From: Escherichia coli
Lineage (GTDB): Bacteria > Pseudomonadota > Gammaproteobacteria > Enterobacterales > Enterobacteriaceae
Reading direction: 5' to 3' (one strand)
NCBI RefSeq assembly: GCF_048403405.1
Contig: NZ_CP183129.1
Length of the DNA stretch: 64,000 nt
Shown: positions 57,085-58,500 of the stretch, piece by piece
Layout of the letters: every line of letters begins with the position of its first letter
Position numbering within the stretch: position 1 is the stretch's first letter
Notes under the pieces: model-generated
Told to the model about the DNA's origin: nothing
Database searches by the model: none
What the model saw: the letters and a program-made list of their open reading frames with translations, nothing else
Program-made: the position numbers and the translations under genes

Positions 57085-58233
57085 TTACTTAGCGGTTTTA
57101 CGGTACTGCTCAATTAACTCGATAAAGTGGTCGAACAACGGCGCGGCGTCGTGTGGACCAGGGCTGGCTTCAGGGTGCCCCTGGAAGCTGAACGCCGGTT
57201 TATCGGTGCGATGAATGCCCTGTAACGTACCGTCGAACAGGGATTTATGCGTGACACGCAGGTTTGCAGGTAATGTTGCTTCATCCACCGCAAAACCGTG
57301 GTTCTGGGCGGTGATCATCACCACGTTTTTCTCCACATCTTTAACCGGATGGTTGCCGCCGTGGTGACCAAATTTCATTTTGACAGTCTTCGCACCGCTC
57401 GCCAGCGCCAGCAGCTGATGACCGAGACAGATACCGAAGACCGGAATATCGGTTTCGAGGAATTTCTGGATGGCGGTAATGGCGTAATCGCACGGGGCCG
57501 GGTCGCCAGGACCGTTGGAGAGGAAGATGCCGTCTGGATTCATTTTCAGCACATCTTCCGCAGAAGTTTGCGCCGGAACGATGGTCAGGCGACAGCCTCT
57601 ATCCACCAGCATCCGCAGGATGTTGCGCTTGGCACCAAAATCATAAGCCACGACGTGGAACGGCAGCTCGTCTTCTTTTTTCGCTTCTGGCAGGCCGCCG
57701 GTCAGCGTCCAGCTCCCTTGTGTCCAGCTATACGTTTCTGCGGTGGTCACTTCTTTTGCCAGATCCATGCCGTTCAGACCTGGGAACGCGCGGGCTTTTT
57801 CTAATGCCAGCGCCGCATCCGGGTTATCGCCTGCGATAATGCAGCCATTCTGTGCGCCTTTCTCGCGCAGTAAACGCGTCAGCTTACGGGTATCGATATC
57901 GGCAATCGCCACGATGTTATGGCGCTTCAGATAAGAAGAGAGGTCTTCGGTATTACGGAAGTTGCTGGCAATCAGCGGCAGGTCGCGAATCACCAGACCT
58001 TGTGCATGTACCTGAGAAGATTCTTCATCGGCGTCATTAGTGCCGACATTGCCAATATGGGGATAAGTAAGAGTAACGATTTGACGAGAATAGGAAGGAT
58101 CAGTGAGGATTTCTTGATAACCGGTCATTGAAGTATTGAAAACGACTTCCCCAACCGCCGAACCTGTTGCCCCTATGGCCCGACCGTGAAACTGGGTTCC
58201 GTCTTCCAGAACCAATAGCGCTGACTTAATCAA
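57085..58233 (-). CDS. carA: Carbamoyl-phosphate synthetase small (glutamine amidotransferase) subunit
   Basis: ORF 57085..58260; start assigned to the TTG codon ([21 protein letters not shown]..., 382 aa) from established knowledge of carA initiation; the ATG call in the track is 9 codons longer. Confidence 0.92.
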
Positions 58234-58500
58234 AACACCCTCCAGAGAATATTCACTCACTTTATTTGCATATTAATTCACAATGATGACGTAAATCAAT
58301 GCAAATCTGCTTACCGACGAATTTCTGGCAAACGGCGGCATTCTGGAGATATGGGCGCTAAAAGTCAACTTAATGGCGGGATTTTTTATATTATTTTGTG
58401 GCTCATGCATGTTTTACAGGCATTAAGCGACAAAAAGATCATATAACATGTTCTGGAAAACGCTTGCGCAGCAAGAAGATTTCATGAAATAAAAATGAGC
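58234..58500 (-). promoter_or_regulatory. carAB tandem promoter / control region (P1, P2)
   Basis: AT-rich region directly upstream of carA; regulator sites (ArgR, PurR, IHF, PepA) are established knowledge and not individually verified here. Confidence 0.55.

Follow-up and report, generated by a model that had tools for sequence, protein, structure and literature searches.

The question raised by this locus is which codon initiates carA, the gene for the glutaminase small subunit of carbamoyl-phosphate synthetase. In the mechanical ORF list of the window (the whole stretch of 64,000 nucleotides that was analysed), the longest carA ORF occupies 57085..58260 on the minus strand, comprises 391 amino acids and has GTG as its first codon; an in-frame TTG (58233..58231, minus strand) is located nine codons 3' of this GTG (58260..58258). 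The preliminary description had placed the start of carA at the TTG (58231..58233) within the 391-aa ORF, and reading of the sequence bore out both the coordinates and the frame; its sole error concerned the upstream codon, which was called ATG and is actually the GTG at 58260..58258. The minus strand reads ...TGTGAATTAATATGCAAATAAA, then GTG AGT GAA TAT TCT CTG GAG GGT GTT TTG, and from the carA TTG onwards TTG ATT AAG TCA GCG CTA TTG GTT CTG GAA GAC GGA ACC CAG TTT... The literal translation of the nine upstream codons is VSEYSLEGV, or MSEYSLEGV if the GTG initiates; the methionine at the head of the 391-aa ORF is solely a convention of the ORF tool. The start region comprises the following features:

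57085..58233, minus strand: carA coding sequence as actually used, 382 codons plus stop (RefSeq, PDB, family profiles)
58231..58233, minus strand: TTG initiation codon of carA, in frame and shared by all 115 orthologous loci (PMC6245113, PMC2952853)
58239..58243, minus strand: Shine-Dalgarno sequence GGAGG of carA, with a 5-nt spacer (GTGTT) to the TTG (sequence, duplex energy)
58258..58260, minus strand: upstream GTG, a spurious start at the head of the 391-aa ORF, equivalent to positions 2-4 (NTG) of ARG box 2

We consider it highly probable (approximately 0.96) that translation of carA begins at the UUG (58233..58231, minus strand) by way of the GGAGG, and that the 27 nucleotides from the GTG to the TTG are untranslated leader harboring ARG box 2 and the Shine-Dalgarno (SD) sequence.

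Ribosome-binding site and annotated N-terminus

The SD interaction was scored as the best duplex between the 20 nucleotides upstream of a candidate start and the 3' end of the 16S rRNA. The duplex energy amounted to -9.8 kcal/mol for the TTG, with GGAGG at a distance of 5 nt, versus -0.7 kcal/mol for the GTG at 58260, which is thus without an SD sequence as judged from its 16S 3'-end duplex; this comparison of the two codons, which had been suggested beforehand, came out as the preliminary description expected. The arrangement GGAGG-N5-TTG, with the SD sequence in the range of 5-9 nt, places carA among the UUG-start genes with a canonical SD sequence, and no other in-frame start-type codon nearby approached the SD energy of the TTG. 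Two further candidates were rejected: a GTG at 58238 is out of frame and without spacer to the SD sequence, and the TTG at carA codon 7 has an SD value of only -3.2. The strong GGAGG 5 nt upstream of the UUG would recruit the ribosome to carA, and initiation at this codon would give rise to a 382-residue CarA beginning with (f)Met-Ile-Lys-Ser-Ala-Leu-Leu; the 27 nucleotides between the GTG at 58260 and the TTG would remain untranslated, with ARG box 2 followed by the SD sequence, and a minor extended CarA proteoform is presumably absent. The accessible portions of the bacterial N-terminomics and TIS-profiling supplements listed no CarA peptide of either form, SEYSLEGV included.

The AUU directly after the UUG (58230..58228) was reportedly considered as an alternative atypical carA start in the literature of 1984, and the N-terminal protein sequence of CarA is reported to be given by Piette et al. 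(1984) and by Bouvier et al. (1984). Initiation at this AUU appears very improbable: the GGAGG is positioned 8 nt 5' of the ATT, a spacing that is still workable, and ORF residue 11 is the first residue of the PDB chain 1a9x_B (379 aa), probably reflecting only the modelled residues, but codon 2 varies (ATT in 81, ATA in 13, AAT in 2 and AGT in 2 of 99 loci) whereas the TTG is invariant; moreover, it is the TTG and not the AUU that is named by RefSeq, the 382-aa PDB sequences and reviews.

The start at the UUG agrees with the available annotation. Of 5426 complete E. coli genomes, 5425 were matched by a 601-bp query around the start; the closest of them (99.8% identity over 601 bp) has a RefSeq carA coding sequence that begins at the base mapping to 58233, and the RefSeq start of K-12 MG1655 b0032, at 29651, is the TTG. 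Five PDB entries contain full-length CarA of 382 aa beginning with MIKSALLV; the first residue of these chains corresponds to ORF residue 10, and the chains align to ORF residues 10-391. The 391-aa ORF scored well above the cut-offs of both CarA family profiles, TIGR01368 (508.5 bits, cut-off 307; match from ORF residue 14 at profile position 1) and NF009475 (430.7 bits, cut-off 221; match from ORF residue 14 at profile position 3), and exhibits the CarA order of a CPSase small-chain N-domain (PF00988, residues 16-141) followed by a class-I GATase domain (PF00117, residues 205-381). As the family profiles begin at ORF residues 14-16, CarA across bacteria begins within a few residues of the TTG; the nine-residue extension falls outside every CarA family profile matched. 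The TTG is given as the carA initiation codon in two publications of the Charlier lab (PMC6245113; PMC2952853, in which it is positioned 100 nt 3' of the P1 start), so that UUG initiation of E. coli carA, which the preliminary description had referred to as a known example, is indeed documented. Its central claim that carA initiates at the TTG is in accordance with the SD energy, RefSeq, the 382-aa PDB chains, the cited papers and the invariance among orthologues alike.

The GTG at 58260 as sole or minor second start would result in a 391-aa, N-terminally extended CarA. Its frame is open, and the 391-aa form is annotated in some GenBank records, i.e. ACB19208.1 (E. coli SMS-3-5), EFJ82609.1, ESD04763.1 and ESD66702.1; these older records represent exactly the ORF in the ORF track of the window. 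They form a small minority that RefSeq/PGAP does not follow: in public collections, at least 1000 contigs carry the 382-aa form of this exact protein, compared with 6 for the 391-aa form. In consequence of the PDB, RefSeq and family-profile data, an extension from the GTG is excluded at the level of annotation and structure. The 90%-identity cluster of the carA protein mixes CarA (382 aa) with CarB (1073-1075 aa; the representative has 1074 aa), its neighbours therein being named carbamoyl-phosphate synthase large subunit; this mixture looks like a clustering artefact. The ORF downstream of carA (53849..57067, minus strand, 1072 aa) begins 17 nt past the carA stop and is, from its sequence, recognisably CarB, the operon partner; carB is thus located immediately downstream of carA.

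ArgR operator, promoters and leader

The ARG box is an 18-bp imperfect palindrome with the consensus WNTGAATWWWWATTCANW, which was used to scan the window. The control region upstream of the TTG contains the following elements:

58244..58261, minus strand: ARG box 2 of the ArgR operator (AGTGAGTGAATATTCTCT), 3 mismatches (orthologue column conservation; PMC6245113)
58265..58282, minus strand: ARG box 1 of the ArgR operator (TGTGAATTAATATGCAAA), 1 mismatch, the best ARG-box match of the window
58234..58266, minus strand: 5' untranslated leader of the arginine-repressed promoter P2 (arithmetic from published distances)
58333, minus strand: transcription start of the pyrimidine-controlled promoter P1, G of GTTTGCC (100 nt before the TTG; PMC2952853)
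58340..58368, minus strand: P1 hexamers TTGACT-17-CAGAAT (promoter scan, fits P1 +1)

Both ARG boxes are exactly 3 bp apart, which is the canonical operator geometry; with two 18-bp boxes at this spacing and an overlap with the regulated promoter, the locus has the complete organization of an ArgR operator. Indeed, ArgR binds two 18-bp ARG boxes with 3-bp separation at carAB, and its binding as well as arginine-dependent repression have been published for the identical K-12 sequence (PMC6245113); the operator of the window, ARG box 2 included, would accordingly be predicted from its sequence to repress promoter P2. The GTG that opens the 391-aa ORF is part of this operator: 58260..58258 corresponds to the N-T-G at positions 2-4 of ARG box 2, the extra codons 1-6 are ARG box 2, and the last three are the SD sequence and its spacer. 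An in-frame TAA (58275..58273) in the A/T core of ARG box 1 closes the frame upstream of the GTG, and the frame is open up to the GTG only because the nearest upstream stop is this TAA inside ARG box 1. The nine additional codons are therefore an ORF-finder artefact within an ArgR operator box and a ribosome-binding site; the proposal in the preliminary description that they constitute 5' UTR with regulatory sequence can be made more precise, the regulatory sequence being the second ARG box of the ArgR operator together with the SD sequence.

Further ARG-box-like matches with 2-3 mismatches were found at 45756..45773 (plus strand), 3892..3909, 4007..4024 and 17810..17827. The total of 9 ARG-box matches in the window is not above the expectation from shuffled sequence (5.9 ± 2.3), and these other matches are probably due to chance. 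The control region of P1 and P2 is also spanned by a 45-aa ATG ORF (58273..58410, minus strand), for which the TAA of ARG box 1 serves as stop codon; the density of regulatory sites in this region makes a further ORF-finder artefact the most likely interpretation.

With the P1 transcription start 100 nt upstream of the TTG, P1 +1 maps to 58333. Two independent results agree with this position, i.e. the location of the hexamers TTGACT-17-CAGAAT and the 5' end of the Rfam sRNA family ES003, which matched 58333..58281 (minus strand; 53 nt, 87 bits, gathering score 37). The promoter scan recovered P1; the P2 hexamers were below its threshold. As 67 nt separate the carAB startpoints of P1 and P2 (PMC6245113), P2 +1 is inferred at approximately 58266, with an uncertainty of a few nucleotides, i.e. 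about 6 nt upstream of the GTG; the leader measures 100 nt in the P1 transcript and approximately 33 nt in the P2 transcript. The GTG is included in both transcripts, and hence the transcript ends do not exclude a start at this codon; on the P2 transcript, however, no more than about 6 nt separate it from the 5' end, a position that speaks against its use.

ES003 begins exactly at the carAB P1 +1, and its 3' limit coincides with the upstream edge of ARG box 1. In K-12, ES003 was mapped by RNA-seq to 29551–29603 with a transcription start identical to an experimentally determined one, and it was 133-fold down-regulated in stationary phase (PMC4676190). The Rfam scan revealed no cis-regulatory RNA family over the carA start, the only matches being ES003 and a sub-threshold DapZ-like match at 58605..58682 (minus strand; 33.8 bits, gathering score 56, E = 5e-4). 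The latter is located just 3' of the dapB stop, the position in which Salmonella has an sRNA derived from the dapB 3'-UTR, and is possibly a diverged E. coli counterpart.

Evolution of the start region in Enterobacterales

Orthologous loci were collected by a DNA-pattern scan with the back-translated motif EDGTQFHG in a species-representative genome collection. The scan yielded 120 loci, 118 of which had enough upstream sequence; 115 of these are carA and three are chance hits in unrelated phyla. The carA loci belong nearly all to the Enterobacterales (Escherichia, Salmonella, Klebsiella, Pantoea, Erwinia, Pectobacterium, Dickeya, Yersinia, Serratia as well as Hafnia, Edwardsiella, Providencia, Photorhabdus, Xenorhabdus, Budvicia and Pragia).

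The TTG was present in all 115 carA loci and the GGAG core was invariant or nearly so (114-115/115), with SD duplex energies of -8.5 to -10.7 kcal/mol except for one non-enterobacterial MAG (-6.6). The presence of the TTG in every locus, always with a strong SD sequence 5' of it, makes it a feature far beyond chance. The codon aligned with the GTG is, in contrast, of start type in only 79 of 115 loci (GTG 59, ATG 14, TTG 6), and the comparison of orthologous N-termini advised in the preliminary description also points to the TTG. In the remaining 36 loci the aligned codon is not a start and in 9 of them it is a stop; 9 further loci have an in-frame stop between the aligned codon and the TTG (18/115 in total), which in Budvicia and Pragia is positioned only three codons 5' of the TTG. 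Fifteen of the 115 loci are without any in-frame start-type codon upstream of the TTG.

The sequence between the two codons evolves as operator and ribosome-binding site. In 91 of 115 loci the tandem ARG-box pair had the offset seen in E. coli, and in 20 it was shifted by ±1 nt, which brings the NTG of the operator out of frame with the TTG. The invariant columns of the 27 nucleotides are the ARG-box half-sites (TGA.T ... TATTC) and GGAGG, so that the conservation of 'YSLEGV' is one of DNA or RNA and not of the peptide; all four bases occur freely at the N of the ARG box NTG (G 63, A 14, T 8, C 6). Codon-position entropy among the orthologues was 0.70/0.89/0.55 in the nine upstream codons, with position 2 being the most variable and no coding periodicity, compared with the coding pattern of 0.21/0.04/0.43 in carA codons 1-9. 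The locus thus combines a conserved start and SD sequence with non-coding-like evolution upstream of them.

Against this background, the use of the GTG at 58260 as sole or second start is hardly credible. The start-type codons in 79 of the 115 orthologues would be in line with it; however, the ARG-box consensus accounts for the NTG, including the start-type codons in these loci, the GTG is not kept as a start, with in-frame stops at or after the aligned codon in 18 loci, indels of ±1 nt separate its position from the TTG in 20 loci, and coding periodicity is missing in the nine intervening codons as is an SD sequence (-0.7 kcal/mol).

The first codons behind the UUG deserve separate mention. 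Among 87 Enterobacterales orthologues, carA codons 2-17 (58185..58230, minus strand) displayed the lowest synonymous variation (rank 1 of 316 windows of 16 codons), with a normalised synonymous entropy of 0.27 versus a carA mean of 0.67; rare codons are fixed at several positions (GGA Gly12 in 99/99, AAG Lys3 in 97/99, TCA Ser4 in 93/99 and CGG Arg18 in 77/99 loci). A candidate 7-bp hairpin, GGUUCUG-GAAGA-CGGAACC, is located at 58213..58195 (minus strand), i.e. +21..+39 from the TTG and just past the footprint of the initiating ribosome. Both the MFE and the centroid fold contain it, and among 86 unique orthologue sequences 66 have it in their MFE. The P2 leader with 64 nt of coding sequence was not unusually stable (z = +0.69). 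The hairpin is nearly invariant, with a single compensatory change (G-C to C-G) in the 86 unique sequences, and as a result covariation neither supports nor rejects it.

The invariant TTG and GGAG in 115 loci, the constrained codons 2-17 and the near-invariant hairpin at +21..+39 together suggested a reading in which the weak UUG start is part of a conserved translational-control module and not a historical accident. In that case the UUG, codons 2-17 and the hairpin could set or regulate the rate of CarA translation, possibly by way of the CarA:CarB stoichiometry, by IF3-dependent discrimination or through retention of the ribosome on the weak start by a downstream hairpin. Such a module is rather unlikely in our view; generic selection on translation-initiation regions explains the constraint at the 5' end more economically than a tuning element.

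Significance and comparison with known carAB systems

The TTG start of carA, its 382-aa product, the promoters and the operator are already known; they have been established in E. coli since the 1980s and are correct in RefSeq. The practical value of confirming the start is small: when the longest ORF is taken as carA, the gene is drawn nine codons too long and reaches into the ArgR operator, and a few GenBank records still carry this error. Mildly new, and comparative only, is the observation that a non-AUG start is absolutely conserved in the sampled Enterobacterales genera and that the first ~17 codons are strongly constrained.

The window originates from another E. coli strain than K-12, and no difference relevant to the carA start was found between the two. 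The K-12 carA (b0032, NP_414573.1; small chain of PDB 1JDB/1BXR/1CS0) is identical in nucleotides from the P1 promoter to the first carA codons over the stretch read, and K-12 carAB has the same TTG, GGAGG, two ARG boxes and 100-nt P1 leader. The CarA protein of the window, likewise of 382 aa, differs from the PDB sequences in one or two residues, e.g. Thr for Ala at chain residue 166, and the exact 391-aa ORF translation matches the records of E. coli SMS-3-5.

In comparison with E. coli, the other genera vary in the N of the NTG and in the sequence between the ARG half-sites, and some have 1-nt indels or in-frame stops. The carAB loci of Salmonella and other Enterobacterales nevertheless share the TTG, the GGAG SD sequence and, in 91 of 115 loci, tandem ARG boxes at an unchanged offset, and S. 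enterica subsp. diarizonae and arizonae are among the loci with TTG and tandem ARG boxes. The same arrangement has been described for S. typhimurium carAB, with tandem promoters of which P2 is repressed by ArgR at two ARG boxes (PMC6245113).
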